A DNA stretch of 64,000 bases from Pyrinomonadaceae bacterium (GCA_963759665.1 CAVXAC010000002.1:482995-546994), one strand, 5' to 3'; positions 12,437 to 40,775 are shown, counted from the stretch's first letter. A program made the numbers and translations. The notes: generated by a model not told the origin, from the letters alone.

Positions 12437-12445
12437 TGATCACCA

Positions 12446-14906: not shown

Positions 14907-16245
14907 ATGTCCGTAGTAATCAGCGTCGAGAACCTCGGCAAGAAATACACCATCGGTCGCAACGGCGCCGGCACGGACGGACTGCGTCACGCTATCCATG
15001 ATTTCTTCGCCTCACCGTTTCGTCGCCTTGGTCAGCCGGCACCTGACACCCGAAACCTGACACCGGATCTGACTTCTGACCTCCGACCTCTGACCTCTGG
15101 TTCCGAAGACTTCTGGGCCCTCAAAGACGTCTCCTTCGAAGTGAAGCAAGGCGAAGTCGTCGGCATCATCGGCCGCAACGGCGCAGGGAAGTCAACGCTG
15201 CTGAAGATCCTGAGCCGCATCACCGAGCCGACCACCGGTCGACTACGCATCCGCGGCCGCGTCGCCAGTCTGCTTGAGGTAGGCACCGGCTTTCATCCCG
15301 AGCTAACCGGCCGCGAAAACATCTTTCTCAACGGCGCCATCCTCGGCATGAGTCGCGCCGAGATCAAACGCAAGTTCGACGAGATCGTCGCCTTCGCCGA
15401 AGTCGAACAATTCCTGGACACGCCCGTTAAGCGTTACTCCATCGGCATGTACGTCCGCCTCGCCTTCGCCGTCGCCGCCCACCTGGAACCGGAGATATTG
15501 ATCGTCGACGAAGTGCTGGCGGTCGGCGACGCTCAGTTTCAGAGAAGTGCCTGGGCAAGATGAACGAAGTGCCCGACAGCGGGCGGACGGTGCTCTTTGT
15601 CAGCCACAGATGAGCGCGGTCGAGGAACTGTGTGCGCGAGCGATCCTCCTGAACCACGGCTCCATTGAACGCTCCGGCGCGACTCATGATGTGGTGGCCC
15701 ATTACCTCACCTCGGCGCTCGCTAAATCGGGCGCGCAGATTGGTGGAGAGGCGGAGCGCGAGGGCACCGGAAATGCGCGCATTACCAAGCTCGAGTTGCT
15801 TGCCGCCGAAACCGATTCGCCGATCGGTACGCTGACTTTTGGGCAGTCCTTTCGCCTCCGCCTTCACTATCGCGCTTCGAAGCGCCTGTCTGACCCGCGT
15901 TTCGGATTTGCCTTGCAGTCGGACAAGGGTGAGCGCGTGTTCCAGACCGAAACAACAGAAATTAACTATCGGATACCGGCCATTGAAGGTGACGGCTGGT
16001 TCGACTGTCTCGTGAAGTCGCCGAATATTCTGCCGGGCCTCTTCTATCTCGAAGCCTGGATCATCGAGCAGGTGAACGTTGCTTTCGCCGACCACTTGTT
16101 TAGAGCGGCGCGGATTGAGATTGACGTCGACCCCGTTCTGCAACATCAATTGACCTATCTTACATATCCCGGGCGGGGCCGTGTCTTTATGGACTGTCAG
16201 TGGTCGCACGCCGAACAAACTAACGAAGTGTATGCTGCGAGATAA
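14907..16245 (+). pseudogene. wzt: ABC polysaccharide exporter ATPase (Wzt/TagH-like) with C-terminal glycan-binding domain, two frameshifts
   Basis: Walker [13 protein letters not shown], signature [11 protein letters not shown], Walker [13 protein letters not shown]. The frame is lost at ~15543 and ~15607. The corrected reading is QFQ(K)[18 protein letters not shown](Q)MSAVEEL. The C-terminal 200 aa look like a Wzt_C jelly-roll. Confidence 0.8.
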
Positions 16246-17197
16246 AACTATTTTCATGACCGGCGGCGCCGGGTTCATCGGCTCGACTCTGATCGGTCGT
16301 TTGATAGAACAAAACCGCGTAGTCGTATTCGACAACCTAAGCCGCAACGCCCTCTCCGGTCTTCCATATGCTTCACACCCTAACCTGAGAATGGTGGTCG
16401 GCGATGTTACCGACGCAGACGCGCTGCAGTCAGCGATCAGTGAGGCCGATCCGCATGTGGTGGTCCACATGGCGGCCATCGCCGGCATTGACACGGTAAT
16501 AAAGAGCCCGACCACCACCATGCGTGTGAACCTGATGGGAACGCTGAATGCGCTGGAGTCAGCACGCCAGGTGAAGCGGTTGGAGCGGTTCGTCGATTTC
16601 TCGACTAGCGAAGTCTTCGGCTCAAACGCGTTTCGCGCAGAGGAGAGTGGACTAGCTTCTATCGGCGCCGTGGGTGAAGCCCGCTGGATTTATGCGGTCA
16701 GTAAATTGACCGGCGAACACATGGCCCACGCCTATCATCGCGAGTTTGGCCTGCCTTCAGTGACCCTGCGCCCGTTTAATGTCTATGGCCCCGGTCAGGT
16801 CGGCGAAGGGGCGATTCACAGTTTTGTCGTGAAGGCTTTGAAGAATGAAGAGATCCAGATTCACGGTGACGGCACTCAGATTCGTGCCTGGTGTTACGTC
16901 GATGACATGGTGGACGGGGTGTTGCTGGCGATGGAACACCCTCGCGCGATCGGAGAATCATTGAACATTGGGAATGCACGAGCGGTGGTAACTATTTACG
17001 GTTTGGCCAACACAATTGTGCGAGTGCTCGGATCGAAATCAGCTATTCGATTTATTCCGAAAGATTATGTCGACATCGAGCTGCGGGTCCCCAACACTGA
17101 TAAGGCTAGGGATCTAATTGGTTTCGAGGCAAAGCTCGATTTGGAAGAAGGGATCAAGCGAACGGGTGAGTTCTACGCGAAGACAGCTTCGCTCTAG
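16232..17197 (+). CDS. NAD-dependent epimerase/dehydratase (SDR family)
   Basis: [12 protein letters not shown] Rossmann motif and YAVSKLTGE catalytic YxxxK. The ATG at 16232 overlaps the wzt stop. Confidence 0.85.
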
Positions 17198-17204
17198 ACT
17201 AACC

Positions 17205-17724
17205 ATGAGACATTTCTCAACTCACGGAAGTGGCGAGGTCAACCGTGAGCATTTTCGTAAGCTTGGCGAGAACGTGATCTTTGAGGCTGGCGTGCTTGTT
17301 TTTCACGCTGACCATATCGAAGTGGGCTCCAATGTTTACGTGGGCCATTATTCGATCCTAAAGGGATACTACAAAGGTCAGATGGTCATAGGCGACGACG
17401 TGTGGATCGGTCAACAGGTGTTTCTTCATAGTGCCGGCGGACTCTTTATAGGCGACCGGGTCGGCCTTGGTCCAGGGGTCAAGATCATTACTTCCTATCA
17501 CCGTGAAGAGGGTAGGCAAAAGCCAATTCTGGACAGCGCTCTCGAATTCGCAACCGTGACTGTTGGCGCAGATTGTGACCTCGGCGCGGGTGCGGTCATC
17601 CTTCCTGGCGTGACGATTGGGAAAGGGGTCCAGATCGGAGCTGGTGCTGTAGTTACCGATGATGCCGGACTACATGGTAGCGGCTGGTGTCCCTGCTAAA
17701 GTAATTCGCGAGCGAGCTCAATGA
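17205..17724 (+). pseudogene. left-handed beta-helix (hexapeptide) acetyltransferase, 3' frameshift
   Basis: Hexapeptide repeats (IGDDVWIGQQV, IGDRVGLGPGV, VGADCDLGAGAVI, IGKGVQIGAGAVV). The conserved end PDYMVAAGVPAKVIRERAQ-stop is in the +1 frame from ~17660, and its TGA overlaps the next ATG. Confidence 0.75.
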
Positions 17725-18957
17725 GCACCACTACCACTTTGAAAATACCTTTAGCAAGGCCGTGGTTTGACGAGGCTGATGAGCAATCAGTGCTCGAAAC
17801 ATTGCGAAGTGGCTGGGTGGGTCCAGGTCCGAAGGTGGCGGCCTTCGAACGTAGCTTTGCGGACTATGTTAGCTCCCCCTACGCTGCGACGGTTTCATCC
17901 GGCACTGCAGCGTTGCACCTAGCCGTGTTGGCCGCCGGGTTTGGACCTGGCGATGAGGTGCTCGTGCCAGCCTTCACGTGGGTCTCAACGCCCAACGCCG
18001 TAGAGTATGCCGGTGCGCGTCCAGTGTTTTGCGACATCGACCCAAAGACCTTCAACATTGACATGACAGATGCGGCTCGACGTGTCACGGGGCGCACAAA
18101 GGGAATTATTCCCGTTCATCTATTCGGGTTGGCTGCTGACATGTCTTCAGTCAAAGAATTGGCACTGAGACATAACCTTTTCGTAATCGAGGACGCCGCT
18201 TGTGGACTAGGTTCTTACTACGAGAATCACCACGTAGGCACACTAGGTGAAATTGGCTGTTTTAGCTTTCACCCTCGCAAGTCGATCACGACTGGTGAAG
18301 GGGGGATGCTGACGACTAATGACAAATCCCTGGACGCAAGGTTCCGCTCGCTGCGCGACATCGGTTCGGACCGCACCAACTATTCGCCGGAACGCGCTGC
18401 CCAACAGTTGCTCCCAGACTATGACGCGCTTGGTTTTAACTTTCGTCTCACGGATTTGCAGGCTGCGTTGGGTTTGACGCAGTTAGCGAAGTTCAACGAA
18501 ATCCTTGAACAGAGACTTGAATGTGCCCGTCGGTACGAGGAGTTAATCAATCACGCTGGCTTGACTGAATGGCTGCAACCTCCGCCATTACCTCGGAGTC
18601 GGGACACGCCTACCGGGCATATCTATGTAGGCTACTCCACCAGATGACGAGCTTTCGACGCTTGAATCCTGGCATGAACGCCGCAACCGCCTAATGAAAG
18701 ATCTGTTTGAAGTCGGCGTGGCGACACGGCCTGGCACTCACGCACCTCACATGCTCAGCTACTATCGGGAGAGATCTGGAATCCGGCCTGACGACTACCC
18801 GGAGTCGTGGCGGGCTGACTGGTTAACTCTGGCACTGCCACTCTATGCAGGTCTGACGCCAGATGAGCAGGAGTACGTCATCGATCGCGTGGGTGAGATC
18901 TGGCACCAATTAACCTCGGCCAAGGTGATTCAAACTTTGCCCTATCACGCTGAATAA
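17721..18957 (+). pseudogene. DegT/DnrJ/EryC1/StrS-family sugar aminotransferase, one frameshift
   Basis: N-terminal 300 aa are typical (SSGTAALHLA, IPVHLFG, FSFHPRKSITTGEGG). The C-terminal part (WHERRNRLMKDLFEVGVATRPGTHAPH) continues in another frame from ~18630. Confidence 0.8.
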
Positions 18958-19367
18958 ACCAGTACTCAACACAAGCGCTCGAAGGTCGAACATATTTCGA
19001 CGGGTTTATGATTTGTCCGAATCGTTACCATAAACATAGTGTTAACAAGAGACGATGATTGGTCATTGGCTGAGAGTTTTATGTTAACTCGTCCCGTTAG
19101 GCTGATCATGATTACAGCGTCCGTTGCCTTTAGCGCAGGCATCGGTTTCCTGTTCCGGTGGGTGCGTTGGCTCTTCCGGCGTCCGCCGCGAGTTACGCAC
19201 GGCATTTGCCCCCTGCATTCTTTAGAGATCAGTGTTGGCGGATCGAGCCGCAGAGTCCGGGCCAAGTATGTGGTTCTCTATGCTAAACAGTCGAACTCCT
19301 ACAACTTGACCACAGAGGGAGAGTTTGACGTAGTTTTTTCGCCTAGTGACAAGGCCACGGGAGCTTA

Positions 19368-20269
19368 TTGGTGGCGATGTCTTTGCCACATACTGATAAC
19401 AACGGATATCTGGAGACGACTTTCGACCCTTCCCCCCTCTCTCTCTCTCTCTTTTTTTCTCTGCCGAACCAACATGAACGAGCAAACAGTCTTATTCTAA
19501 GACTGATTAGGTTGGTGGGAATTCGAATTGTTGCCTTTCCATATGGAGCCGACGTCGCCTACGAGATAACCTCCGGGACCGTTTTGATTGGGTGGGCGAG
19601 ATGCAGCAAGATTATCCCGATTGGGATTTAGTTGAGTGGGGAACTGCAACGCGTGCGAGTGTTAGAGTTTTTAGCAAATACGCAGATCTCGTGAATGTAA
19701 TGGATGGAACCTTTCGGAGATTCCTTTCCCGGCAGGATATTTGTTGCAAGACAATTCCGGTTGATACGCAAGTCCTTGCTCCTCCAGTAGTCGCCGCAAC
19801 CCACGCCGTGCCCGTTCTTGTCCACGCTCCAAACCACCGTAATGTTAAGGGTACCGCCTTCCTGCTGGATTCACTCGAAGATTTGCGAAAAGTCGGAATA
19901 GCATTCGATTTGCGGATGGTTGAGAACACCGATCGGTTGGAGGCAATTGAAATTTACCGTCAGGCAGACATCATTGCAGATCAATTTGTAATAGGAGCCT
20001 TTGGGGTTTTTGCGCTCGAATGCCTGGCGCTGGGTAAGCCGGTTCTCACATATTTGGATCATGAGCATTTATGCAACCCGTTGTTCAATCTGCCTATCGT
20101 CAATTCGAACAGGTTTAATCTAACCAGAGTTTTGGCGGTTTTGCTAAAGGTTCCTGAGCTTCGTACCAGATTGGGGGCAGCGGGACGCGATGCGGCTGTC
20201 AAGTATCAATCCCTGGAAGCAATTGGGGAACTGAACAAAATAGATCTACGACCACCTCTGGTGGCGTAA
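19368..20269 (+). pseudogene. GT-B fold glycosyltransferase-like gene, frameshifted (5' limit uncertain)
   Basis: C-terminal half has VLVHAPNHRNVKGT, ADIIADQFVIGAFGVFALECLALGKPVL. The upstream segment LIRLVGIRIVAFPYGADV is in another frame (shift ~19575). Further upstream frames are unclear. Confidence 0.5.
19437..19475. repeat. polypyrimidine simple-sequence tract C6-(TC)n-T7
   Basis: CCCTTCCCCCCTCTCTCTCTCTCTCTTTTTTTCTCTGCC within the degraded 5' part of the glycosyltransferase-like region. Confidence 0.9.
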
Positions 20270-20554
20270 GCCTTTATGTCTAGAAAGGACGGCGCATTTC
20301 GATTCGAGTCGTACTGCGAGATCATTCACTGAGGACCCTGGGATCGAGGAGTTTTGGCCAGTCAAGGTAAGCGACTTGATGCCGAGAATCTCAGAAGCGC
20401 TCCGCAGCCTTGAAGTCGGGTATCTGGAAACTCAATACCAGCGTCGAGAAGAATCCAACGTATCTTTGACTTCCGCCTGAAGTTGAGCTTCCACAGCGCG
20501 GCGGTTTTTTCTCCCGCTCTTCAAAACCCCGTAGTTCAGTAGAGGATCAAAACA

Positions 20555-22231
20555 ATGTCTCAAGTCAACATTGCCGTTCTGGGTAGTGGCTCGTGGGGAA
20601 AAAACCACGTGCGTGTCTGGTCTCAATTGGGCCACCTGCGAGCGGTTTGCGATGTAGATCCCCGGTCGCTCGATAAAGTACGAGGACAATACCCAGGGGT
20701 TGAAACACCTTCGGACGTTGGCGAGGTACTAAATCGTGACGACATTTCAGCAGTTGTCATTTCAACACCGGCTCCAACTCACGCCGCTCTTGCCCTTCAG
20801 GCCCTGCAAGCAGGCAAGGATGTGCTGGTTGAAAAACCGATGTCGCTAACTGTCTCGGAAGGCGAACGCCTAGTCGAGACCGCTCACCGACTGAACCGAA
20901 TTCTAATGGTAGGCCATGTGCTGGAGTACCACCCCGCTGTAAAGAAACTTGGAGAATTGATTGCCGAGGGAAAGCTCGGACGCATTCGCTACATTTATTC
21001 CAACCGGCTGAGCATGGGACGTATTCGGACCGAAGAAAATGCTCTCTGGAGCTTTGCGCCTCACGACGTCGCCATAATGCTCAGGTTAGTAGGGGGCGGT
21101 CCCGATCAGATTGCCTGTCATGGCGCAGCCTACGTCAATCATGGCGTTGCCGATGTAACGATGACCAATCTGCGTTTCCCCGGAAACGTTTTCGGCCACA
21201 TCTTTGTAAGTTGGCTGCACCCGTTTAAGGAGCACCGTTTTGTCGTCGTAGGAGACGCAAAGATGGCGGTCTTCGACGACACTCAAGGGTGGGCGGAGAA
21301 ACTAACGCTTTACCCTCACCGCGTGGATTGGTTCGGCGGTCAAGTGCCAATCGCACATAAGGCGGAGGCTGAGCTAGTGCCGCTCAGCGAGACTAAACCA
21401 CTGCGCACGGAGTGCGAAGAATTCGTTAGGTGCATCATTACCCGCCAGCAGCCATTAACCGATGGCCGGAGTGGTCTGGAAGTTCTGCGAATTCTCGCCG
21501 CTGCGCAGGATTCGTTAGAGCATGAAGGACGTGCGGTGGATTCTCCGTTGAAGTCTCAGAGCCCCGCTTTTTACGCTCACTCAAGCAGCATGGTCGAGGC
21601 CGGTGCAGATGTTGGCGATGGAAGCAGAATTTGGCACCACACACATGTTCGGGCTGGAGCCAGGATCGGGCGCAACTGCGTCCTGGGAAAGAATGTTTTC
21701 GTGGCCCCTTACGTCAACATCGGTGACGGAGTAAAGATCCAAAACAATGTCTCGGTTTACGAAGGGGTAGAGCTGGAAGACCATGTTTTTTGCGGACCGT
21801 CCATGGTATTCACAAATGTGATTAATCCGCGTAGCGAGATCGAACGAAAGCATGAGTTTCGCAAGACTCTGGTAAAGCGCGGAGCCACCTTGGGAGCAAA
21901 TTGCACGATAATTTGCGGCAACAACACCGGACGGTATGCATTAGTGGCTGCTGGGGCGGTTGTGACTAAAGAGGTCCCTGACTACGCTTTGGTAGTAGGC
22001 GTGCCAGCCCAGAGAGTTGGCTGGGTGTGCGCATGCGGTGAGAGGTTGAAGGCGACTATTGATGTGCACAGTTGCGCGGCTTGCGGCAAACTTTACCAGC
22101 AACTAGGCGAGAACGAATTGGCAGCCATGCCTGATCCTGAGCTAGTCCAGTCGCCTAAACAGCATTGGGTTCCCGTAGGGTCGCTTGCTTGTCACAGACT
22201 GCCACAGCAACCTCGAGGGCGTGGTCGGTAA
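20555..22231 (+). CDS. bifunctional Gfo/Idh/MocA oxidoreductase + LbH N-acetyltransferase (WbpB-WbpD-like fusion)
   Basis: N-terminal Rossmann [12 protein letters not shown] and EKPM motif. The C-terminal ~200 aa hold hexapeptide repeats plus a Cys4 ribbon (CACGERL...CAACGKLY). Single 558-aa frame. Confidence 0.8.
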
Positions 22232-22257
22232 GTAAAGATTGAGGGAGAGATCATCAA

Positions 22258-23434
22258 GTGCAAGTACCTTTATTTGACAACACCCGGCAATTCCAGGCGC
22301 TGAGAGAGAGTCTGCTCAGTTCGGTGGAAAGCGTGCTGGTTTCCGGCAAGTACATTCTTGGCCCGGATGTCGAAATCTTTGAGCGCGAGGCTGCGGAATA
22401 CCTGGGTGTGAAGCATGCCATCGGCGTCGCGAACGGCACCGATGCTTTGTGGCTAGCGCTGAAAGCTGTGGGAATTGGTCCGAACGATCGCGTGCTAACT
22501 ACGCCGTTCACGTTCTTCGCTACGGCCAGCGCGATTCTTACCACCGGCGCCAGACCGGCGATGGCTGACATTGATCCTGGGAGTTTTAATCTGAGCGCGA
22601 AGCAAGTGCGCATGGCGCTGGAAGGGAAGTCTGAAGTCAACCAACGGCTCGGCATCCGTCCGGATTCCATTAAGGCCATAATTCCTGTCCACCTGTATGG
22701 CCAGTCTGCCGATATGGACGAGTTGATGGATCTGGCAAAGGAATACCACCTCGCCGTGATCGAAGATGTGGCTCAAGCTTTCGGAGCGGAATACAAAGGG
22801 CAAAAGCTTGGGGGATTCGGAACATCGGTTGCTTCAGTTTCTTCCCCACGAAGACTCTGGGAGGTTTCAGCAACAGCGGCCTCGTGGTCACGAACAACGA
22901 CAAGCTCGCTGCCGAGATACGGATGCTACGATCCAATCGCTCCAAGCCGAAGTATTACCACCATCTCGCCAGCGATAACAGCCGGCTCGACACGATTAGA
23001 GCGACGATGTTGCCCGTCAAGCTAGGCACCTGGACAATCGATACAGGCTCGTCAGGACCATGCCATTGCCTACGATCCAGATCTAAATGAGTTGCCAGGT
23101 TTCATTTCGCCTCATCGGGCACCGATCGGACCCACACCTACCATCGATACACGGCTCGGGTTTCGACGATGAGCGCAGTGCCCTGCAAGCATTTCTTAAG
23201 GAACATAGGAATGGAACTGAGATGTATTGCCCATTGCCTATGCACCTCCAGACGGTGTTACTTCCGGAGGGTTATGGACCAGGTGACTTCCGGAACGCGG
23301 AACAAGCCTGCTCCGAGGTGCTCTCCCTTCCGATTTTTCCCGAGATGCTTGCAGCGGAAAGGGATTACGTCACTGCAAGCATCAAAGACTTCATCTTCAT
23401 GAAAGGGTTTGTCGCTGTCCCAATCCCAACGTGA
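22258..23434 (+). pseudogene. DegT-family sugar aminotransferase (WbpE-like), multiple frameshifts
   Basis: Homologous segments lie in three frames: ...GVANGTDALWLAL...IPVHLYG; GCFSFFPTKTLGG..VVTNNDKLAAEIRMLR; IQARQDHAIAYD; THTYHRYTARV; DDERSALQAFLKEH...EVLSLPIFPEM. Confidence 0.8.
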
Positions 23435-24330
23435 TGCATAGGCCGAAGAAATTATTAATCGGGATTACATCCTTCGATAGCTGAATCTTATTCGGATCCA
23501 CCATAGAAGCTGCTCAGCGTAATACCGACGCTGACTTCACGCGTATTGTGTTTCTTGATAATGTGTCAACGGATGGGTCGGCAGAACTAGCGCGTGATCA
23601 CAGCATTGAAGTGGTTACACGTAACTGTAGTCAACCACAGGCCTGAACCATGTACTGGATCTTTCCAACAGCGAATTCACGCTACTGATCCACTCTGATG
23701 TAATTCTACTGTCCCCTAGATGGCTCGAGGTTTCTGTTAACCGGTTGACCGGAAATGTCGCACTGGTTTCGCCAGAAGATATTGGCTATGGGCCCTTCAC
23801 CAGGCCTTGGGGAAACAGAAGCCTGAAAGCTGTTTCCTGCTATTCAGGACTGAGATGGCCCGGGCAGCTCGTTCCTGACACAACGTTCAGCGATTCAAAA
23901 TCCGCTCGGCCTTTTCGTGCACTTGATTTTTTTCGTGAGCACATCACGTACAATCTACCGAAGGTACTCGCGGCTCATGGTTTCACTTGGGAAATAATGG
24001 CGGCCCATACCTCATCGTACAAAGAGGAAGCGAATATCAACCGCAGTTCGACCCAACACATTCGCAGGATACCTATTCTTTTTACCACTAGGCCTCGGCA
24101 ATTTTTCAGCCTGACGGCCAGATGACCCACTATCACAACTGGTACATCGTGCAGTCGCGAGCAGTGTGAAAGTAGACGGCGATTCACAAGAGACTTTCCC
24201 TGCAAAAGACGGGCTACCCTCAGCCTTTGTCAAGGCTTATACCGAGAAATTTCTTCGGATTATCAGTCGCGGCACGTTAGTTATTCCTCCGGTCAGCCAT
24301 GAAAGACCGGAATCAGATCTCGATGACTGA
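23434..24330 (+). pseudogene. family-2 glycosyltransferase, multiple frameshifts
   Basis: Fragments MHRPKKLLIGITSFDS, TRIVFLDNVSTDGSAELA, EFTLLIHSDVILLSPRWLE and later pieces are spread over all three + frames. Confidence 0.65.
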
Positions 24331-24390
24331 TGCGCTTATTCTACTAGCACCCTGGTCGTCAGCTCGCGGCGTCTGATCATCTATATCGAA

Positions 24391-25224
24391 ATGAATTCAT
24401 CCTAGCTTTTGTCTTCGCCGGATTGTTAGCCGGAGCTCTGCTCCTGTTAGTAATCGTGCGTAAGAACAGAGCGATCTGGAGCGAATTATTCAAGCAGCGT
24501 GAACAGAGTCGATCGTTTCGCCGAGACATTGTTAGTCTCAGGAAGCGGTTAGTAATCGATCGGGTGCGCGATTCCGTGCGGCTGCCGTTGTTGATACCTT
24601 CGAATATGGTGAAGTCTACTGCTATGGAACTTCTTTCAAGGTAAACGGGACGGGTTTTATGTCGATGTTGGTGCGTTTGATGGTGTTCGATTCGGCCGTA
24701 CATATTTCTTTGAGGCAATCGGTTGGGGTGGAATTTTAGTAGAACCAGTGCCCAAATTTTATGAAAGTTGCGTAAAAGCTCGGCCTTACAGCCGAGTCAT
24801 AAATGCAGTGGCAAACGATGGCACCACCTCTGAGATGCGATTCTCAATAGTAGAAGGACCTAATGGGGTCGGTACGCTCTCGTTTGCTGGTGAGGACCAC
24901 TCTCAGCTGGAACGTGTACAGCGTGAAGCGGGAACAATTCGCACTACAACACTGCCGGCACGTTCTCTACAACGAATTCTCCGAGACGATCAAGGTCCCA
25001 TCGACTTCGTCAGCATTGATGTTGAAGGCAAGGAGATGGATGTACTTCGCGGGTTTGATCTTGCCCGGTTCCGTCCCCGCGTTGTAATTATCGAAGACAA
25101 CTCTAACGGAGCTGATAAACAGGTTGGTGAGTGGTTTTCGGCTCGCGGCTATGAAGAGCGGTTTCGTTGCGAGCACAACGTGTTTTATACCAACAAAAAC
25201 AAATTCTCAGGTTTCCATTGGTAG
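24391..25224 (+). pseudogene. FkbM-family methyltransferase, frameshifted
   Basis: FYVDVGAFDGVRFGRTYFFEAIGWGGILVEPVPKFYE and IDFVSIDVEGKEMDVL are in the 24748 frame. The preceding FEYGEVYCYGTSFKVNGTGF and the N-terminal TM segment are in other frames (shift ~24655 and upstream). Confidence 0.7.
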
Positions 25225-25248
25225 TTACGCAAGCGATAGTCAGTTTTA

Positions 25249-26579: not shown

Positions 26580-26670
26580 TTTGTGCCCACCGACTTGTTG
26601 ATTTTTCAGGTGGCTAACTGAGGGTTTCTGCTGTTAGTTAGTTAGCTCGTCATCTTTAAGCTCGAAACCG

Positions 26671-27770: not shown

Positions 27771-27772
27771 AC

Positions 27773-29551: not shown

Positions 29552-29570
29552 GATCAATACAGAACGGATT

Positions 29571-30452
29571 ATGAAAGAGTGGTACATAGGACGCCTGGCA
29601 TGTCCCGATTGCTCAAAAGAGCTCCAGCAGCTGCAGGATGCGATTGCTTGCGAGCAATGCGGATTTTCGACGCCAATTGCGAAATGCCTTGACCTGCGTC
29701 CTAGAAAATGTCAGAATCGATCACAGAATATCCCAAGTACTTTTAGCGGAGAGGAAGCATTCGTCAAGACCAGAAAGGAGAGCCCGTCAATCAGCTATGA
29801 TGGGCCTAATGAGGGCCGCGACTCCAGAGAGCTTTTGTCAGTCATAGAGCAATTGCTAACGACTCCCGGGTGCGTGCTCGATCTGGTTGCGGCCCAAAGG
29901 ACCAGTTCGAACCTATTACATATTTGGGCCACAACTATGTGGGCATCGACCTGTTTAGCCCTGCCGCTGATATCAAGGGCGACGCCCATGTCTTGCCTAT
30001 TCTAACTTCTAACTTCGACTGTGACTTCTCCTTTGCCGTATTAGAGCACCTTCAGACCTCACTGATTGCTTTGAGCGAAATAAGAAGGGTGCTGAGACCC
30101 AATGGAATCTTCGTTGGTACCGTTGCGCAGGGAGAACCATTTCATAGCTCATTCTTCCATCACACGAGTTTGGGGAGTTTTGAGCCTTGCTAGCGCAGCG
30201 GCATTGGAGGTCGTCCAGCTATGGACGTGTACCGATACCCTCTCGTCGTTGGCTTACATGGGTCGTTATCCCAGGGTGCTAAGAGCCGGTCTAAGTATGT
30301 TGGATCTGATTCATACAACTTTTCCTTTGTTGGCGCCCCGAAAAGCAAGGTGGTCCGCAGAGGATAAAGCAATTGATGCGTTGCATCGTGCCGGAAGCAT
30401 TGGCTTCGTCATGCGCAGAGCGACGGTGGACGGTGGTTCCGAGCAAAATTAA
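29571..30452 (+). pseudogene. class I SAM-dependent methyltransferase with N-terminal zinc-ribbon, two frameshifts
   Basis: CPDCSKEL..CEQCGF, then VLDLGCGPKDQ (frame change ~29885), VLEHLQ..RRVLRPNGIFVG, and a second change at ~30180. Confidence 0.7.
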
Positions 30453-30520
30453 GTCGGCCATACCCGTCGAAGAAGCTCAAACCTGATTACGCTACTACAA
30501 CTGAGAAAGGCCAATTGTTA

Positions 30521-31484
30521 GTGGGTTTCGTCTCCACCATCATTCCGGTTCACAACCGTGCCTCGATGCTCAGGAGGCAGTGGCGAGCGTTCTGGCCCAG
30601 ACCTACCGGCCGATTGAGATCATCATCGTGGACGACGGCTCGACCGATGAAACTGTCCCAGTCGCCGATGAGTTAAGTTAAAGAGCATCCCGACGTAATC
30701 AGAGGTCATACAGCCAACGCAACACTGGGCCAGGATTGGCCCGTGAAGCCGGTCGTAGCCCGCAGATGGAGAATTCATCCAGTATCTGGATAGCGATGAT
30801 CTCTTGCTGTCGCGAAAGTTTGAGTTACAAGTCACAGGTCTCAAAGCTCAACCCGAATGCGGAGTCTCTTACGGCAAAACTCAATATCGTCACAGCGACG
30901 GCAGATTGGAAGACACGCCCTGGAAAGGGTCGGGCCAGAAGGTTGAAACGATGTTTCCGTCTTTCCTGCTCGATCGTTGGTGGGACACACCGACGCCGCT
31001 CTATCGAGCAAGCGTCTGGAACGAAGCTGGGCCATGGTCTGATTTGAAGCTCGAAGAGGACTGGGAATACGACTGCCGCGTCGCCTCGATGGGAGTGCGG
31101 TTGCACTACTGCGACGAGTACGTCGCTGAGGTTCGCGACCACGATCAGCAACGACTTTGCAAAGGCGAAGCAATTGACCCGCTCCGTCTCAAGGAGCGCG
31201 CAAGAGCGCATGCGCTAATCCTCTCTCATGCAGAGCGCGCCGGCATCGTCGACACGGAACCAGAAATGGAACATTTTGCCCGCGAACTGTTCCTGCTTTC
31301 GAGGCAGTGCGGCGCCGCCGGCCTCGTTGCTGAATCAAAGACTTTATTTGCTCTTGCCAAGAAAGCTTCGGGGCAGGTCCGGGCGCAGAAGTGGGATTTC
31401 AAGCTTTATGAAAAGCTTGCCGACATCACCGGCTGGCATTTCCTGGGGAAGGCTACCTGCTACTCCGACGCGTTAAGAAAATGA
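30521..31484 (+). pseudogene. family-2 glycosyltransferase, about four frameshifts in the 5' third
   Basis: VSTIIPVHNRASML | EAVASVLAQTYRPIEIIIVDDGSTDETVPVADEL | VKEHPDVIR | GPGLAREAGRS | GEFIQYLDSDDLLL... lie in alternating frames (about 30572, 30676, 30715, 30760). Confidence 0.75.
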
Positions 31485-32411
31485 GTGAAGGCCCAGACAT
31501 CTCTGTCGTGATGAGCGTCTACAACGGCGCCACTCGATTGCGCGAGACGGTCGACAGTGTTCTGTCACAGCAAGGGGTTTCGCTTGAGTTCATTATTGTC
31601 GATGACGGGTCCACGGATCAGTCGTCGGAAATTCTAAAGGAGTACGTAGAGGCTGATGCTCGCGTCAATCTCATACGTCAGGAAAATCGTGGACTCACCC
31701 GAGCGCTCATAACCGGATGTGCGCAAGCTAAGGGCAGGTACATCGCGCGCCAGGATGCCGGTGACGTTTCGTTACCGGGGCGATTGAAAAAACAACAGGA
31801 CGTTTTGGAATCAGATCCGAGCGGCTCATTTGTATCGTGCGGAACAGAGTTCGTCGGGCCTGAGCGTGAGCGCTTGTACGAAGAAATTCCGGAGTCGATC
31901 GATCTTACCGAAGCATTGCTCACCCTTGATGTTGATAAGATCAAAGGCCCAACCATGCATGGGTGCACGATGTTCCCGCGCAGAGACCTACGAACTGGTT
32001 GGAGGTTACCGATCCTCTTTTTACTTTGCACAGGATCTTGACCTTTGGGTCCGTCTAGCTGAGCGTGGCAAACATCTCGCTGTCAGGGAGATTCTTTATG
32101 AGGCCTCGCTCACGCTGGGATCGATTAGTAGCCGTTACCGGAAGCATCAGGTTGAAACAGCTCGCCTTATCCTTGAGAGCGCGGGCCTGAGGCGCGCAGG
32201 AAAAGATGATGCTGAAGTATTAGCAAGCGCGAGCAGAATCAAACCAGACATGAATGAGAAGTTTGGTCGGGCGGGGCGGGCCGACGCGCTGTATTTCATC
32301 GGGGCCTGTCTGCGCCAGAGTCGCAATCCTCATGCTCCTGATTATTTCCGCCGTGCACTCCTTACCTATCCACTCCATGTGAGGTCCGCGGTGCGACTGC
32401 TGTTTGGATGA
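31481..32411 (+). pseudogene. family-2 glycosyltransferase, one frameshift
   Basis: ISVVMSVYNGATRLRETVDSVLSQ..IIVDDGSTDQS..ARQDAGD, then the frame changes at ~31980 to ETYELVGGYRSSFYFAQDLDLWVRL. Confidence 0.8.
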
Positions 32412-32420
32412 GTCTGTTTG

Positions 32421-33215
32421 ATGAAGCCTCCGGTTTTTAACCCTGACTGGCCAGAAGATGTCAGAGCTGTTTACCAGCATGACATGCAGGAAATCTGGGA
32501 TCCAACGATTGCCAGGCACGTTTGGAATCAGTATCACAACCAACTCGATCTTTACCTCGGATTGGTTGAAGGCCGCGAAAAGCTGGATATTTTGGATGTT
32601 GGCTGTGCGCAGGGAACTCTGGCCCTCATGCTGGCCGAGCGCGGCCATGAAGTCTGGGCCATGGATATTCGGCAGCAGTTTCTCGACTACGCTGCTGCTC
32701 GACATGAGCGAGGTCTCGTTCATTTTATCTGCGGCAATGCCATGGAAGTGGAGTTGGACCAGAGGTTTGATCTGATCTTTGCAAATCAGATAGTGGAGCA
32801 TCTCGTTTACCCACTCGAATTCACCCAGCGTCTCGCGAGTTGGCTTAAACCAGATGGCCGGCTGGTGATGACTACACCGAATGGGGAGTACATCAAGAAT
32901 TCGTTACCCAGCTATTCGGAATTAGGCGACGTGAAGCAGTACGCCGAGCGTCAATTCACAGCCGACGGCGATGGACATTTCTTTGCCTATTATGGAGCCG
33001 AACTAAAACGGATTTTTGAGCAGGCGGGTCTGAGGAATGTCAGTACGTTGTGCTTTGAAACACCGTTCATTTCTGGTCATCTTAAGGTCAGATATGTTCA
33101 CTCCATCCTTCCGCAACCAATTCTGAAACAACTCGACAAGGTAACGTTGCTCGTTCCCAGGGTTGGTTGGCGGCTCGCTCATCAGATGATGGTCATGGGG
33201 GCGCGTACTTCGTGA
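32421..33215 (+). CDS. class I SAM-dependent methyltransferase
   Basis: Motif I ILDVGCAQGTLALMLAERG, post-I AMDI, LIFANQIVEHL and LKPDGRLVMTTPN. Intact frame. Confidence 0.85.
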   Translation: MKPPVFNPDWPEDVRAVYQHDMQEIWDPTIARHVWNQYHNQLDLYLGLVEGREKLDILDVGCAQGTLALMLAERGHEVWAMDIRQQFLDYAAARHERGLVHFICGNAMEVELDQRFDLIFANQIVEHLVYPLEFTQRLASWLKPDGRLVMTTPNGEYIKNSLPSYSELGDVKQYAERQFTADGDGHFFAYYGAELKRIFEQAGLRNVSTLCFETPFISGHLKVRYVHSILPQPILKQLDKVTLLVPRVGWRLAHQMMVMGARTS

Positions 33216-33784
33216 CGGCATTTCATCGTCAGCTGGAAGAGATTCTCGATCGAGCGAAGCTGGCAGTGGCTCGCTGCCGTGCGAGACTCTTGTCATTTCG
33301 TGGGGCCACGATCCAATCGAAGGTTTCGATTGGCGCGTTGTGCCGGACGGACCGGCCCTGGTGCGTAACCATTGGTCAGCGGTCCGTCTTTGAAGATGCA
33401 GTTTATTTGAAAGTGGTGAACGACCACGCGGTACTTGAGTTCGGCGAATATGTGTTTGTCGGACGCGGATCGGAATTCGATGTGCAAGAGAGAATTCTAA
33501 TCGGCAATCATACTTTGATAGCACCGGGCTGCTTCATAACAGATCACAGCCACAGCATTTCACCTGCGGTTCACGTCGATCAGCAGCCTACTATTTCCAA
33601 GCCGGTAGTAATTGGAAATGATGTCTGGGTCGGTGCGAACGTCACGGTTCTCGCTGGAGTGAGAATCGGCGATGGTGCAATAGTTGGCGCCAATTCGGTG
33701 GTCACGAGAGATGTTGCTTCCATGACCATAGTTGGCGGTACTCCGGCAAGACTTTTGAACCAACGAGCCACAGTAAGGGCTTAG
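33212..33784 (+). CDS. hexapeptide-repeat (LbH) acetyltransferase
   Basis: IGNHTLIAPGCFI, IGNDVWVGANVTVLAGVRIGDGAIVGANSVV. The GTG start overlaps the upstream stop (GTGA). Confidence 0.8.
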   Translation: MTAFHRQLEEILDRAKLAVARCRARLLSFRGATIQSKVSIGALCRTDRPWCVTIGQRSVFEDAVYLKVVNDHAVLEFGEYVFVGRGSEFDVQERILIGNHTLIAPGCFITDHSHSISPAVHVDQQPTISKPVVIGNDVWVGANVTVLAGVRIGDGAIVGANSVVTRDVASMTIVGGTPARLLNQRATVRA

Positions 33785-33793
33785 CAGAGTATC

Positions 33794-34712
33794 ATGCACC
33801 CGTCTCAGGCAGCCTTTCTGCAAATCGGCAAAATGATAAGAACATTGCCGAAAGTCCGGGGCAAAGTTAGGCTCGGACAGTTGTGTTTCAATTTGGCTAA
33901 TAGAAAACCGAGCGAACCATTCGTCGTCGAAGCGCCGCTCTTTCCGGAAGGGTTGAGATTTCAGCTGAATCTAGATTGTGCGCATGAGCGGATGGCCTAT
34001 TTGATGGGTCAATACGAAGAAGAAACCATCTCTCTCCTTGCAAGTTTGTGGTCGGGTGGGGCGTTTCTGGATGTGGGAGCGAACGTCGGACTAATTTCCG
34101 TTCCTTTCACCAGTAGAATCGCGAAAGCTACGAAAACGACCAATAAGTTTGTTTATGCAATTGAGGCGCTTTCAACCAACTACAGAGCACTCTGCACTAA
34201 CATAGAACTAAATAATTTGGATCACCTGATTGTGCCAATAAACATGGGCCTCGGAGCGGAAGACAAGGAAGTACAGATTCACGTGGAAGGTGACAACTTC
34301 CAAAGAACTGGAACGGCAAATATATTGCCTGATACTTTTGCCGGTGTGAGAACCGCGATTGATATTCGTTCTATTGACACCCTCATAAGAAAGGGCCTTC
34401 TACCCGAGGACATCACTCTAATGAAGATCGATACGGACGGATAACGACTATGAAGTGCTTAAGGGGACGCGGGGGTTACTCCGGAAGAATCGACCAATTG
34501 TTTACGCCGAGTTGGCCGAGCATTGCCTGAACTGGCATGGGAATGGAGTCACTGAAGTGTCCGAATTTCTTGAAGGGCTTGATTATGAACTCTGGTCGTT
34601 ACAGGATTCAAAATCAATGAGATTTACAAAAGGCTTGGTTCCCGACTACGTAATGAATAGTCTTTTGGTACCGAAAGAGCAAGCCAGTCAGTTAGGTTCC
34701 CTCTTGCTCTAA
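33794..34712 (+). pseudogene. FkbM-family methyltransferase, one frameshift
   Basis: FLDVGANVGLISVPF and LMKIDTDG-stop at 34442. The conserved continuation (N)DYEVLKGTRGLL is in the next frame. Confidence 0.8.
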
Positions 34713-34718
34713 TTTCTT

Positions 34719-35612
34719 ATGGTAAGCCTCTCAATTATCATTCCGACCTATAGACGTGAAGAGGTGCTGATCGAAACCCTGAGACACATCCAGACCCTGA
34801 ATCCTGGTCCAACGGAGATTCTGGTATTGATCAGTCACCGAGTCACGAAGAGAGACGATCAAACAGCTTCGGAATTCGAAAAAGAAGGTGTAATCCGATT
34901 AGTTAAATTAGCGAAGCCATCGATCACGCGTGCCATGAATCTCGGCTTACAGCTAGCTTGTGGCGAGATAGTCCTATTTCTGGATGATGACATTATTCCT
35001 GGCCCCGAGTTGATTGCCGCGCATATTCAGGCCCATGAGCAGGATGAGTTTGTCGTCGCAGGTCAGGTCATTCAGCAGGCAGGAGGAGGGGCTAAGTCTG
35101 CACCTCACGCGAACTTCCATTTTGCTTCAAACACCAAGCAGTACATCACAGAGCTCATGGGTGGAAACTTTTCAATCAGGCGTTCGCTGGCTCTTGGGCT
35201 TGGCGGGTTCGATGAAAATTTTGTTCAAGTCGCGTACAGGTTCGAAGCTGAGTTTGCCGAGCGTGCCGTCCAGGCTGGCAAACAGATTCTTTTTGAGCCA
35301 CGCGCGAGCATTAAGCACCTGAAGGCAGCAAGCGGCGGCACGCGCTCGTTTGGACACCATCTGACAACCCTTCGTCCAGGTCATGCAGTCGGCGCCTACT
35401 ATTATCTGCTTCGCTCCAAAGCTGTTCCTCACCGGTTCTTGAGTTTGATTAAGCGGCCAATTCGAGCGATACGAACTAAGCATCATCTGAAACAGCCCTG
35501 GTGGATACCGGCAACCTTAGCGGCCGAGGCGATGGGGTTTGTGTGGGCCGTGTCTCTCTATTTGCGTGGGCCAAGACGGCTACAACCCACTGTGGAACAC
35601 ATGGAATCATGA
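34719..35612 (+). CDS. family-2 glycosyltransferase
   Basis: LSIIIPTYRREEVL, VLFLDDDIIP, GGNFSIRRSLALGLGGFDENF. Single open frame of 297 aa. Confidence 0.8.
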   Translation: MVSLSIIIPTYRREEVLIETLRHIQTLNPGPTEILVLISHRVTKRDDQTASEFEKEGVIRLVKLAKPSITRAMNLGLQLACGEIVLFLDDDIIPGPELIAAHIQAHEQDEFVVAGQVIQQAGGGAKSAPHANFHFASNTKQYITELMGGNFSIRRSLALGLGGFDENFVQVAYRFEAEFAERAVQAGKQILFEPRASIKHLKAASGGTRSFGHHLTTLRPGHAVGAYYYLLRSKAVPHRFLSLIKRPIRAIRTKHHLKQPWWIPATLAAEAMGFVWAVSLYLRGPRRLQPTVEHMES

Positions 35613-37059
35613 ACGAATACGTGTTGGCCGTCGTTGTGGGGCTCGGCCTGTTTATCTGCTTCACAAACTGGCGCATGGGCTTCCTCTTGTGTGTAATTGT
35701 AGGCTGCTTGCAGGATCCAATTCGCAAGGTGATTCCCGGAGAGCCCGTTTATCTCACCTCGGCAGTTCTCCTTTTTGTTGCCGCCACTTGTTTTGGTGCT
35801 CTATCCAAGGGCAAACGATTTAGTTTGCGTCCGATTCATCCTGGAATAACAGCCTGAGAGCCCCCTTGACTCTGTTTCTTATCCTGGTCCTGATTCAGAG
35901 TTGGGTAACCTTCGTAAAGTTTGGTAGTCCTATCCTCGCGGCAATCGGTTTCCTGGCTTACATGACTCCCGTGCCGGGGATCTTGCTGGGTTATCACTTT
36001 GCCCTGCGCGAACAAGCGACCCACAAATTCATCAAAGCCTATGTCGCAATAAATGTGGTGATGATAGCCGGTGTCTATCTCTCCTACATGGGATTTGAAT
36101 GGCAGGTGCTCGATTCCGTTGGTGAGGGGTTATTAATTTACTCATGGGAAAAAGGGGCGCTCTTCCTGCGCTCAGGGTTTCTTCCGAGCCCCCGAAGTTG
36201 CTGCCTGGCACGCCGCACGTCGATCTGCTTCCTGATCATTATGTTCATGGTTCTGAAGAAGCATCTGCTTCTGAAATTGGCCACTGGAGGCTTGATTCTC
36301 TTCTTTTGGGGTGCGCTATTGTTTACCGGCCGGCGCAAATTCATGATGGAGATCTTTGTTTTTCTTTGCGTCTACGGCCTCCTCCTTCTTCTGATCCGCA
36401 GCAAAGTCTCAAAAACTTTAAGGACCTCTTTTCTGCTGGCGGTAGTCCTTGGCGTTGCATTCACAGGCTATCTCTACGTTCGTATCGGAAGACTTACAGG
36501 GTGACCTCAATCCGTATTACGAAAGGAGCGCAACCGTTGGTGGCGACGCGGGCGAGCGAGCTTCATTAATGACCGTTCAATCAATTGGTTCGGTGCTTGA
36601 GCAGAACGGGCCGTTGGGTTCGGGCGCGGGCACGGGTAGTCAGGGCGCACAATATTTTGGCGGCGGCTCAGAGCTTGTTGGCTTGGGTGCAGAAGGTGGA
36701 CTGGCAAAGATAGTCGCCGAGCTGGGGCTGCCGGGAATTGCCTTGATCCTGTGGCTGGCTCTTGGTCTCGGTCGATATTTCTGGGCGATCATCAAACAAG
36801 TCAGGCAATCGGATGTGGAACGGGCTAGTCTGACGTTTGGGTTAATTGCAATGCTCGTAGCCAACGCTCCGTGTTTGTCACTGCGCACCAGATTTTTGGC
36901 GATCCCTTTGTTCTATCCTTGCTCGGGTTCCTGATTGGATTTGTGATGGCTGTCCCACACATGCCGCCTGGACTAGCGCCAGCTGCGAGCCTCCTGCTGC
37001 CTTTGCGACCGGGCGGACAACCGTTAGTGGCTTCGCGAAGTTTCAGAGGTAGGGTGTAG
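35609..37059 (+). pseudogene. Wzy-like O-antigen/EPS polymerase (multi-TM), at least three frameshifts
   Basis: Hydrophobic segments continue across ORFs in different frames (35609-35857, 35866-36504, 36449-36934, 36871-37059). The loop GSGAGTGSQGAQYFGG..GAEGGLAKIVAELGLPG is typical of the Wzy/ligase family. Confidence 0.6.
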
Positions 37060-37067
37060 CGTCACGC

Positions 37068-37223
37068 GCGGCTTTGCCGCCTACCGTGCGGAAAGGCCTC
37101 GCCTTTCCGGCGTTCGCATTCTCTTTCATGTGGCTGTTCTCGGAGGGAGGCATAGCCTCCAAATAGTTTAAAACGGTCATCGGTAAGGCAGAGCCTTACC
37201 GCACTGTGCTGCGGTAAAGCCGC
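37068..37223. other. multi-hairpin structured intergenic element
   Basis: Outer stem GCGGCTTTGCCGC..GTGCGG (37068-37091) pairs with CCGCAC..GCGGTAAAGCCGC (37199-37223). It encloses three hairpins: GGAAAGGCctcGCCTTTCC, GGAGGCataGCCTCC and GGTAAGGCagaGCCTTACC. Confidence 0.5.
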
Positions 37224-37346
37224 TAGTTGTTCACGGTACCGACGCCATGCTCCAAGTCCCAGGACGCAAGCTAAAGCTTGAACCTTAAACACCTGCACTC
37301 TCAACGGCAGCACTCGAAACGCCTCTAACTGTACGCCGATCTATCC

Positions 37347-38603: not shown

Positions 38604-38620
38604 AGAGCGGCCGCAATATT

Positions 38621-39505
38621 TTGTTAGGCACACTGAAATTCATCCTCGACCACCCACTCAATCGAGATCACAAATTATCCGCAGTCAGGCGTTGGGTAAA
38701 CTGGCAAGTTGGCAGCCGGCTGGTGCCTGGACCGGTGGCAGTCAAATTTGTGAATGAGACGATGTTGTTGGTAACGCCGGGAATGACTGGCGCCACCGGG
38801 AATGTATATGCAGGACTCCACGAGTTTACCGACATGGCCTTCGCGCTTCACCTGCTGCGGCCCGATGACCTTTTTGTCGACGTCGGTGCAAATGTCGGTT
38901 CCTACACAGTCCTCGCTGCCAGCGTGGGCGCAAGATGTATTTCGATCGAGCCGATTGCCACTACCTTCAAACATCTGGTACGCAACCTTCATTTGAACAA
39001 CCTGTCTGACCGGGTGGAGGTGCGCAACATCGGAGTTGGTTCCGCGAAAGGGACACTGAAGTTCACCTCAAGTCTGGATACGGTTAATCACGTGATCGAC
39101 GACCACGAGAATTCCGACGCAGGAGTTTGTGAAGTTGCGGTCGATACGCTGGATAGCGTTGCCGCAGCTGCGGAGCCGGTTCTGGTGAAGATTGACGTTG
39201 AGGGTTTTGAGACGGAAGTAATCGCAGGAGCGGAGCAGGTATTATCAAACGAGTCGCTCCTCGCGGTGATCATGGAATTGAACGGCAGCGGTAGTCGTTA
39301 CAATTATGACGAAGACGAACTCTACCAGCGAATGATTGGTTATGGCTTCAACCCGTATTCCTATTCACCATTTGAACGGTCATTGAATGCCATGAATGGA
39401 GAAAGAGGGCGGTCGGGTAACACGCTGTTTGTCAGAGATGTTGCGGGGGTTCGCCAACGCTTGAAAGAAGCCCCGACCTTTACCGTTAACGAGGAGAGTG
39501 TTTAA
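38621..39505 (+). CDS. FkbM-family methyltransferase
   Basis: FVDVGANVGSYTVLAA and LVKIDVEGFETEVIAGA. TTG start, 294 aa, intact. Confidence 0.85.
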   Translation: MLGTLKFILDHPLNRDHKLSAVRRWVNWQVGSRLVPGPVAVKFVNETMLLVTPGMTGATGNVYAGLHEFTDMAFALHLLRPDDLFVDVGANVGSYTVLAASVGARCISIEPIATTFKHLVRNLHLNNLSDRVEVRNIGVGSAKGTLKFTSSLDTVNHVIDDHENSDAGVCEVAVDTLDSVAAAAEPVLVKIDVEGFETEVIAGAEQVLSNESLLAVIMELNGSGSRYNYDEDELYQRMIGYGFNPYSYSPFERSLNAMNGERGRSGNTLFVRDVAGVRQRLKEAPTFTVNEESV

Positions 39506-39652
39506 GACTCCTGGCAGTACAGGCGAGCGGAAGAGCCGGGATAAGTCCTCCTTCCCGACTGTGAGAGAACTCAGAACTGGGATGAAACCGAGATTGGAGA
39601 AGCGGGAAGCTGAGAAGCGACGTGCTGAGGAGCTGTTGATGCTTGTGCATCT

Positions 39653-40775
39653 ATGACTAAAGCATTGAGCTCGCCTTCCAAAAAAATCCTGCTTGTACTT
39701 CCAGAGGTTTTTAATTGTGTCGGTGGCATACAGATGTTTGGCCGGGCCCTCTGTCTCGCCGCAGGAAAATGGGCTGAGGCACATGACGGTTCGGTGAGCG
39801 CACTCGTGCTGAATGATCAGGGTGCACCTGATGCACGTTATGTGAATAGCGGGTTTGCTCGTTATGCAGGATTGGGAAAAAACAAGACCAAGCTCGTTGC
39901 CCAATTCGTGCGTCAGATTCTTGCCGAAAAATACGACTGGATCGTCTTCGGACACGTATCACTCGCTCCGCTGGCGTTGATGGCAAGAACCACCAGGCCC
40001 GGAGCAAAAACCTGCGTCATTACCTACGGAATCGAAGTGTGGCAGCCGCTGCCGCAATTGCAGCGCAAGGCTTGCGTCTAATGCCGACCTGGTGCTGGCA
40101 ATCAGCGAGTACACGAAGGATCAAGTGGTAAAGCATGCCGGCATCGCACCTGAAAAAATCAAGCTCTTCCCATGTGCGCTGGATCCATTCTGGGAAGTAC
40201 CAGAGCCTGGTCCAACCGGAGAACGTGGGCCGCTGGTCATGCTCAGCGTGACGCGTATGAATAAAGAGGACGACTACAAAGGCATCGACAACGTGATCAA
40301 GAGTTTGCCCGCGATCGTCGAGCAGGTTGGTTCGGTTGAGTACCGGATCGTTGGGCAGGGCGATGATGTTCCGCGTTTGCGTGAACTAGCTGTTGAGTTG
40401 GAGGTCGAGCGTTACGTCACTTTTCTTGGCGAGTTGTCGAACGACGAACTTCGCGAGCAGTACAAAGACTGCTCAGTCTTCGTCATGCCGAGTAGCAGGG
40501 AAGGCTTTGGCATCGTGTTCCTTGAAGCCATGGCTTATGGCAAACCTGTCGTCGGCGGGAACCATGGCGGAACGCCGTCCGTGGTTAACGATGGTGAGAC
40601 CGGGTTGCTGGTTGAAAGTTCAGATGCAGATGGCATCGCGCGTGCGATAACAAAGTTGCTGTCGGATGGTGGTCTGCGCGATCGACTTGGACGCGCCGGG
40701 CGTGAACGACTGTTGAATGAGTTTACGTTTGAAAGATTCGAGCGGAGTTTTGAGACGGCGTTTGAGCTAGGGTGA
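39653..40775 (+). pseudogene. GT4-type glycosyltransferase, one frameshift
   Basis: The N-terminal domain ends at the stop at 40079. NADLVLAISEYTKDQV...FVMPSSREGFGIVFLEAMAYGKPVVGG continues in another frame (shift ~40070). Confidence 0.8.

Follow-up and report, generated by a model that had tools for sequence, protein, structure and literature searches.

Here we describe a cluster of broken reading frames in 64,000 nucleotides (nt) of DNA from a Pyrinomonadaceae bacterium (GCA_963759665.1 CAVXAC010000002.1:482995-546994), a stretch that we call the window and in which positions are counted from the first letter. The breaks fall in a central 25-kb polysaccharide island, and our reading, to which we give a probability of about 0.85, is that they arose as assembly or polishing errors when a strain-variable glycan island was built from a noisy long-read metagenome; the organism itself most likely keeps the island intact and functional. 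The lesions are present in the window as deposited. Most of them are absent from independent sequences of the locus, the sister contigs are damaged at other sites, and selection on the broken genes is not relaxed.

Lesions are confined to the central zone of the window

Lesions were located on a stop-to-stop map of the three plus-strand frames and by scanning the open segments against Pfam for split profiles. Within the zone, 15 of about 23 co-directional glycan-biosynthesis genes are broken, from position 15548 to about 40070 (Table 1). The tally comes to about 36 insertions or deletions (indels) of 1-2 nt, of which about 26 are deletions and about 10 insertions; TGA codons interrupt the frame at two further sites (23482 and 27342). 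All 38 lesions lie inside 38% of the window, an arrangement with a chance of about 1.5e-16 under a uniform rate. The Pfam match of the first DegT/WbpE-type aminotransferase, for example, covers profile positions 4-265 in frame 3 and 286-359 in frame 1, and the homology of the second DegT aminotransferase is spread over three frames. The genome annotation already holds the fragment open reading frames (ORFs).

The map and the Pfam splits, with 15 genes affected between about 15.5 and 40.1 kb, bear out the claim of the initial annotation that broken frames are confined to a central zone, and its lesion coordinates prove right to within a few bases nearly everywhere. Its minimum of four lesions in the second DegT gene and of three in the Wzy-like gene becomes five in each, all five of the former being -1 shifts. 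The disruption that it placed near 18630 in the first DegT gene is there, but as two -1 shifts (near 18600 and 18633) and not as one event. Several apparent +1 events are pairs of -1 deletions (in the first DegT gene, and at 23024/23036 in the second); true 1-nt insertions also occur. One seemingly intact gene, the GT2 at 34719-35612, has an open frame that hides a compensated -1/+1 pair at 34824/34853, which scrambles 10 codons and hits the VIDQ(S/T)P motif.

The 39 kb of flanks hold zero lesions. In the flank ORFs scanned (20 of about 29) the Pfam match lies in a single frame and is mostly full-length, the alignment of wzm to a short-read homologue runs over 846 nt with zero gaps, and no off-frame homology of substance was found in the flanks; the short flank ORF at 12089-12439 gave no Pfam match. 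The single-frame matches and the gap-free wzm alignment agree with the earlier description of the flanks as undisturbed. Compensated pairs called at 44316/44489 and 52260 in intact flank genes were rejected on inspection as spurious output of a frameshift-aware aligner run with distant references.

Sister contigs restore most of the reading frames

Independent sequences of the locus come from several sources. The 90%-identity cluster of the oxidoreductase-acetyltransferase fusion protein encoded at 20555-22231 groups it with a 152-amino-acid (aa) fragment of contig_61919 (12,046 bp; L161) from the ENA metagenome assembly ERZ25039516, and the same assembly contains contig_61918 (L163); both contigs have Flye-style names. 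L161 aligns end-to-end with window positions 15493-27475 at 96.8% identity (241 mismatches and 94 indel events), and L163 covers 30528-33216 at 94.3% identity. A contig of Logan SRR33230258 (L162) holds a homologous cluster without breaks, which has about 80% nt identity and covers 30566-33687 and 34740-36914, and a locus from a Pyrinomonadaceae metagenome-assembled genome (MAG; L001) encodes a DegT protein 77% identical to the frame-corrected second DegT protein of the window. Exact-protein look-ups of two intact zone proteins returned no match, and contig scans recovered distant relatives only, both among genome contigs with the fusion protein (best 75% aa identity) and among metagenome contigs with the asparagine-synthase-like (AsnB-like) protein (about 35%). 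Four TARA contigs (L164-L167) were rejected as homologues, as a spurious 55-aa ORF is all that they have in common with the window, to which they do not align.

The comparison with orthologous loci that the initial annotation had proposed shows that independent contigs restore most frames. L161 or L163 has a frame-restoring state at about 20 of the 24 lesions that they cover, and the other four are shared. Protein homology had pointed to 12 lesion sites before the discovery of L161, and at 12 of 12 this contig has the base or bases that restore the frame (joint chance about 10^-12.7). The sites include the five deletions of the second DegT gene, which becomes a 399-codon ORF when the five extra bases of L161 are inserted, and position 17665, where the loss of precisely 'TG' had been predicted. 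Further to the right, the window is at odds with both L162 and L163 at 30574, 30702, about 30716 and 30761. The frame-corrected proteins are full length and 77-90% identical to their orthologues. Indeed, once its five frameshifts are removed, the Wzy-like gene shows 90% aa identity to the intact orthologue in L162 over 432 codons, with zero stops.

L161 has damage of its own in genes that are intact in the window: its epimerase is split into 125 and 104 aa and its fusion gene lies in four pieces. As L161 is broken at other genes than the window, both contigs are therefore error-prone consensus sequences. A hybrid that takes the longer allele of the window and L161 everywhere still leaves some genes unrestored, because L161 has insertion errors too.

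The sister contigs are limited to the zone. No member from ERZ25039516 was found for any of the 15 flank genes looked up; at 90% identity, 13 of these 15 are singletons and two cluster only with contigs of other assemblies. No near-identical second MutS was found, and every window protein tested comes from one contig of 607,062 bp. This restriction fits an assembly-graph bubble at a strain-level recombination breakpoint. At its start, L161 (positions 1-110) differs from window positions 15493-15600 by 22 mostly third-position, synonymous changes and is near-identical beyond them; judged from the alignment, two haplotypes with this island in common appear to have recombined within wzt at this point.

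Shared lesions and other points of doubt

Several points weigh against an artefact. L161 is noisy and unfit as a gold standard. At the -1 shift near 27085 and at the TGA at 27342, L161 matches the window base for base (27060-27110 and 27342-27344), and near 30679 and 31983 L163 and the window do not differ in length. Three stretches of the zone, together 12.5 kb, lie outside the independent sequences (27.5-30.5, 33.7-34.7 and 36.9-40.1 kb). The deletions are unlike the homopolymer type that is typical of a well-polished nanopore consensus. The platform and the dip in coverage are deduced from contig naming and error pattern. Finally, very recent decay in the lineage of the window would also, formally, leave a sister lineage with its genes intact.

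The four shared lesions could be genuine mutations or systematic errors. This raises a mixed case, which we regard as possible if not probable, in which most lesions are artefacts, a few are real, and at least one transferase is a true pseudogene; the candidates are both lesions of the GT2 at 26638-27770 (the -1 shift and the TGA), to which the +1 shifts near 30679 and 31983 may be added. Besides the base identity with L161 and the equal length of L163 at both +1 sites, this view can call on the closeness of the window and L161 over 24.8-27.5 kb, where they differ by just 9 mismatches. Other features point the other way. The shared -1 shift lies in a run (C3) that one restored base would lengthen to C4, a classic systematic undercall, and the contigs may have reads or basecaller biases in common. 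Near 31983 the extra bases differ, reading AGAGACC in the window and GACGACC in L163. Moreover, the comparison of the window with L163 shows purifying selection to either side of the shared +1 sites, which is incompatible with an ancestral frameshift. A real pseudogene in the GT2 at 26638-27770 would leave the main verdict unchanged.

Selection, lesion spectrum and mismatch pattern

Genuine recent pseudogenisation would mean that a silenced island is decaying by small indels and that L161 and L163 keep functional alleles under their own sequencing noise. In its favour are the restriction of the lesions to one functional module, the intactness of some genes within it, the precedent of the frameshifted O-antigen cluster of Yersinia pestis (general knowledge), and the two lesions of the GT2 at 26.6-27.8 kb that L161 shares. 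We consider it unlikely on the following evidence. The initial annotation had suggested estimating the ratio of nonsynonymous to synonymous rates (dN/dS) of the reconstructed genes; against L162 it is 0.09, 0.085 and 0.06 for broken genes and 0.06, 0.11 and 0.12 for unbroken ones. Broken genes are thus as constrained as intact ones, the relaxed selection that would mark a genuinely pseudogenised glycan cluster is not seen, and decay is not supported. L163 is a genuine sister haplotype that differs from the window by 91 synonymous and 33 nonsynonymous changes; given this synonymous excess, purifying selection acted on the window's broken genes as the two close lineages diverged.

The lesion spectrum is also unlike that of natural decay. 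Neutral decay is expected to spread damage evenly and to produce far more substitutions and stops per indel, but the window has about 36 indels against two stops. The zone has no large deletions or insertion sequence (IS) elements, and the Pfam scans show domain architectures of full length. In 11 of the 16 deletions resolved to the base, neither neighbour is identical to the missing base, in five one neighbour is, and in none would the base sit in a run longer than two once restored. The earlier statement that bases are lost from 2-nt runs therefore holds for the five and not for the other 11. Natural slippage indels, as mutation-accumulation studies show, cluster in longer runs. The compensated pair hidden in the seemingly intact GT2 at 34719-35612 and the presence of the same type of damage in the sister contigs, at other sites, further oppose decay.

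Under phase variation or programmed frameshifting, the shifts would be regulatory, at contingency loci or recoding sites in the glycan genes. Phase variation is classic for genes of glycosyltransferases (general knowledge), and a C6(TC)8T7 tract in the window, missing from L161, points in the same direction. Yet all 16 base-resolved lesions lie outside repeat tracts, the lone tract (19432-19459) is not at a resolved lesion, single genes carry up to five lesions, the lesions are not conserved in the sister contigs, and the intact homologous cluster of L162 requires no frameshift. We regard this explanation as extremely improbable.

The mismatches between the window and L161 carry a signature of their own. 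By codon position they are distributed 83:63:76, i.e. at random, and they comprise 147 nonsynonymous changes, 67 synonymous ones and 8 to or from stop. Their spectrum is strand-asymmetric (G>A 57 and A>G 48 versus C>T 14 and T>C 22), a further point against decay, and suggests that one or both consensus sequences were built on very few reads, possibly from a single strand. They are also patchy: 3 mismatches fall in 22.2-22.8 kb, about 95 together with 26 indels in 22.8-24.8 kb, and 9 in 24.8-27.5 kb. This patchiness extends to within one gene. The first 560 nt of the second DegT gene are essentially identical in the window and L161; in the next 500 nt the window changes family-invariant residues (GDGG>SNSG, HG>NR, Y>C, P>R) at which L161 retains the consensus. 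All of the damage to this gene, five deletions and about 15 radical substitutions, falls within 22.8-23.3 kb, and such unevenness rules out neutral decay as its source. For residues of this kind the informative test is the direct comparison of the window, L161 and L001, as violations of columns conserved at 90% or more are non-discriminating, with a baseline of 6-22% in intact genes.

A real event could also have been local. We give little credence to a very recent burst of small indels and clustered substitutions across the island in one strain, with the sister haplotypes left intact; error-prone repair or recombination following acquisition of the island would be a possible cause. If true, a cell-surface module would have been inactivated in a kataegis-like, region-restricted manner.

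Proposed origin of the errors and comparison with known systems

The source is most likely an error-prone long-read metagenome assembly of an uncultured, soil-type Pyrinomonadaceae. Under the consensus-artefact reading, reads from the island would derive from more than one haplotype or be few in number, consensus building and polishing would leave raw-read-like patches with 1-nt deletions, fewer insertions and substitutions between G and A, and the single-haplotype flanks would be polished cleanly. We infer the platform, the assembler and this mechanism of coverage or strain mixture. Of the two origins offered by the initial annotation, a locally unpolished, strain-heterogeneous region is the one favoured here, given that sister contigs restore most frames, and decay finds no support for the bulk of the lesions. 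Its argument that lesions so uneven are hard to reconcile with sequencing error fails for a metagenome consensus, where error tracks local coverage and strain mixture.

Indel-induced pseudogenes have been documented in nanopore MAGs and are worse at low coverage (PMC8103633; PMC12007338). The window resembles such false pseudogenes of long-read assemblies and MAGs (nanopore or PacBio continuous long reads) in that ORFs are split by 1-nt indels, that frames are restored by independent or more accurate sequence, and that the proteins are otherwise conserved; their effect, too, depends on coverage (PMC8103633; PMC12007338). It differs from them in that the errors are limited to a 25-kb island in an otherwise clean 64-kb stretch, lie outside homopolymers and come with patches of substitutions. 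These differences point to local strain mixture or very low local coverage and not to a genome-wide basecalling bias.

A second parallel is found in the strain-variable 'metagenomic islands' of surface-glycan genes, which share with this locus a mosaic cluster, lower G+C, atypical codon usage, alternative haplotype contigs for the island only, and differing gene content, as in the Logan homologue that has no FkbM gene. In the present sample, the island would likewise recruit fewer or mixed reads. Decayed O-antigen clusters, such as those of Yersinia pestis and the chromosomal one of Shigella sonnei (general knowledge), are alike in having several frameshifted genes between intact flanks. In contrast to the window, such clusters have few lesions each, and these recur in all sequences of the lineage; the window has as many as five in one gene, its lesions are mostly private to one contig, and the sisters are damaged elsewhere.

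The pseudogene cluster is thus almost certainly no real biological feature, and is best seen as an instructive local example of a well-understood class of artefact. Were the lesions true, they would amount to a region-restricted loss of surface polysaccharide in a soil acidobacterium, and the evidence is against this. The case calls for caution, as public long-read MAGs can hold local, raw-read-like error patches precisely in strain-variable surface-glycan islands. Such patches mimic pseudogene clusters, inflate pseudogene counts, split gene families, and distort pangenome analyses and surveys of defence and glycan genes.

Gene content of the locus

The MutS of the window is 91% identical to Pyrinomonadaceae MAG proteins, and the organism is therefore an uncultured member of that family (Acidobacteriota). 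Nearly all genes of the window lie on the plus strand and form one very large polysaccharide locus (Table 1). The central 25 kb are most likely a laterally mobile, strain-variable polysaccharide island of the O-antigen or exopolysaccharide (EPS) type, containing a Wzm/Wzt exporter, a Wzy-like polymerase, GT2 and GT4 transferases, FkbM and S-adenosylmethionine (SAM) methyltransferases, and a WbpB/D/E-like diacetamido-sugar module. An ABC-transporter-dependent O-antigen or glycan pathway is supported by the Wzm permease and by the ABC_tran and Wzt_C domains on the frame-corrected wzt.

Table 1. Features of the window, with the lesions observed in each
Feature	Position	Strand	Observation
LVIVD-repeat protein	left flank		
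MutS	left flank	-	all five domains
SIS protein; LuxR-type regulator	left flank		
Wza-like exporter; Wzc-like tyrosine-kinase co-polymerase	left flank		
GDP-mannose 4,6-dehydratase (GMD)	10995-11999		left flank
Epimerase	left flank		
23S-rRNA-IVP family gene (PF05635)	13476-13838		120 aa; four-helix bundle; between GDP-sugar genes and wzm
Wzm permease	13862-14704		position of ABC2_membrane domain
wzt (ABC ATPase + Wzt_C)	14907-16245	+	1-nt deletions 15548, 15609; Pfam split; L161 +C at both
Error-laden zone	15493-40090	+	left edge is first base of L161
NAD-dependent epimerase/dehydratase	16232-17197	+	intact in window; split in L161
LbH acetyltransferase	17205-17724	+	2-nt deletion 17665, predicted from family motif; L161 has +TG
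DegT/WbpE-type aminotransferase, first	17721-18957	+	two -1 shifts, near 18600 and 18633
GT-B-like gene region	19012-20269	+	at least 2 shifts; includes C6(TC)8T7 tract
GFO/IDH/MocA oxidoreductase-LbH acetyltransferase fusion (WbpB/WbpD-like)	20555-22231	+	intact in window; four ORFs in L161
DegT aminotransferase, second	22258-23434	+	1-nt deletions 22822, 23024, 23036, 23126, 23165
GT2	23434-24330	+	TGA 23482 (TCG in L161); -1 at 23645; two shifts 24091-24146
FkbM methyltransferase	24348-25224	+	deletions 24603, 24617
GT4	25249-26579	+	deletion 25904; halves in different frames; intact 409-aa ORF in L161
GT2 (Glyco_transf_7C-type)	26638-27770	+	-1 near 27085 in C3 run; TGA 27342; both identical in L161
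Asparagine-synthase-like amidotransferase	27773-29551	+	ORF intact
SAM methyltransferase	29538-30452	+	two shifts, about 29885 and 30180; outside sister-sequence coverage
GT2	30377-31484	+	-1 30574; +1 about 30676-30679; +1 30702; +1 about 30716; -1 about 30761
GT2	31481-32411	+	+1 near 31983
FkbM methyltransferase	33794-34712	+	+1 within 34425-34444; gene absent from L162 cluster
GT2	34719-35612	+	open ORF; compensated -1/+1 pair 34824/34853
Wzy-like polymerase	35609-37059	+	-1 35840; +1 36175; -1 36215; +1 36475; -1 36866
GT4	39653-40775	+	near 40070, last lesion of zone
GT4 and GT2 transferases	right flank		
Second asparagine-synthase-like gene	43026-45056		right flank
Carbamoyltransferase	right flank		
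GT87-like membrane protein	right flank		
Second GMD	49029-50033		right flank
UDP-sugar epimerase/decarboxylase-type protein	right flank		
Further GT4; WecA-type initiating transferase	right flank		

The G+C content of the island falls to 0.48-0.51, and a codon-usage hidden Markov model trained on the flanks calls much of 18.5-36 kb non-coding, open ORFs included; both features are explained by a likely lateral origin of the island genes. This flank-trained model was unable to place frameshifts in the island. The FkbM gene at 33794-34712 is missing in L162 (3114-3301), where an LbH acetyltransferase is followed directly by a GT2, and the island is therefore mosaic between relatives. The underlying biology is most likely ordinary for soil Acidobacteriota, with intact Wzm/Wzt and Wzy and a heavily methylated, acetamido-sugar-rich polysaccharide island.

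We further note some features of individual genes. The fusion gene at 20555-22231 is followed by the second DegT gene at 22258-23434, and this pair is syntenic with L001 at 72-77% aa identity. From its domains, the pair resembles a WbpB-WbpD fusion plus WbpE, and may form a module for a 2,3-diacetamido-2,3-dideoxy-uronic acid. The simple-sequence tract at 19432-19459, 28 nt long and wholly missing from L161, falls within the GT-B-like gene or immediately upstream of it; an artefact of low-complexity reads, a real simple-sequence repeat (SSR) and a promoter-region polymorphism are all possible. Two full-length GMD paralogues stand at opposite ends of the polysaccharide locus (10995-11999 and 49029-50033), and the locus also has two asparagine-synthase-like amidotransferases (27773-29551 and 43026-45056).

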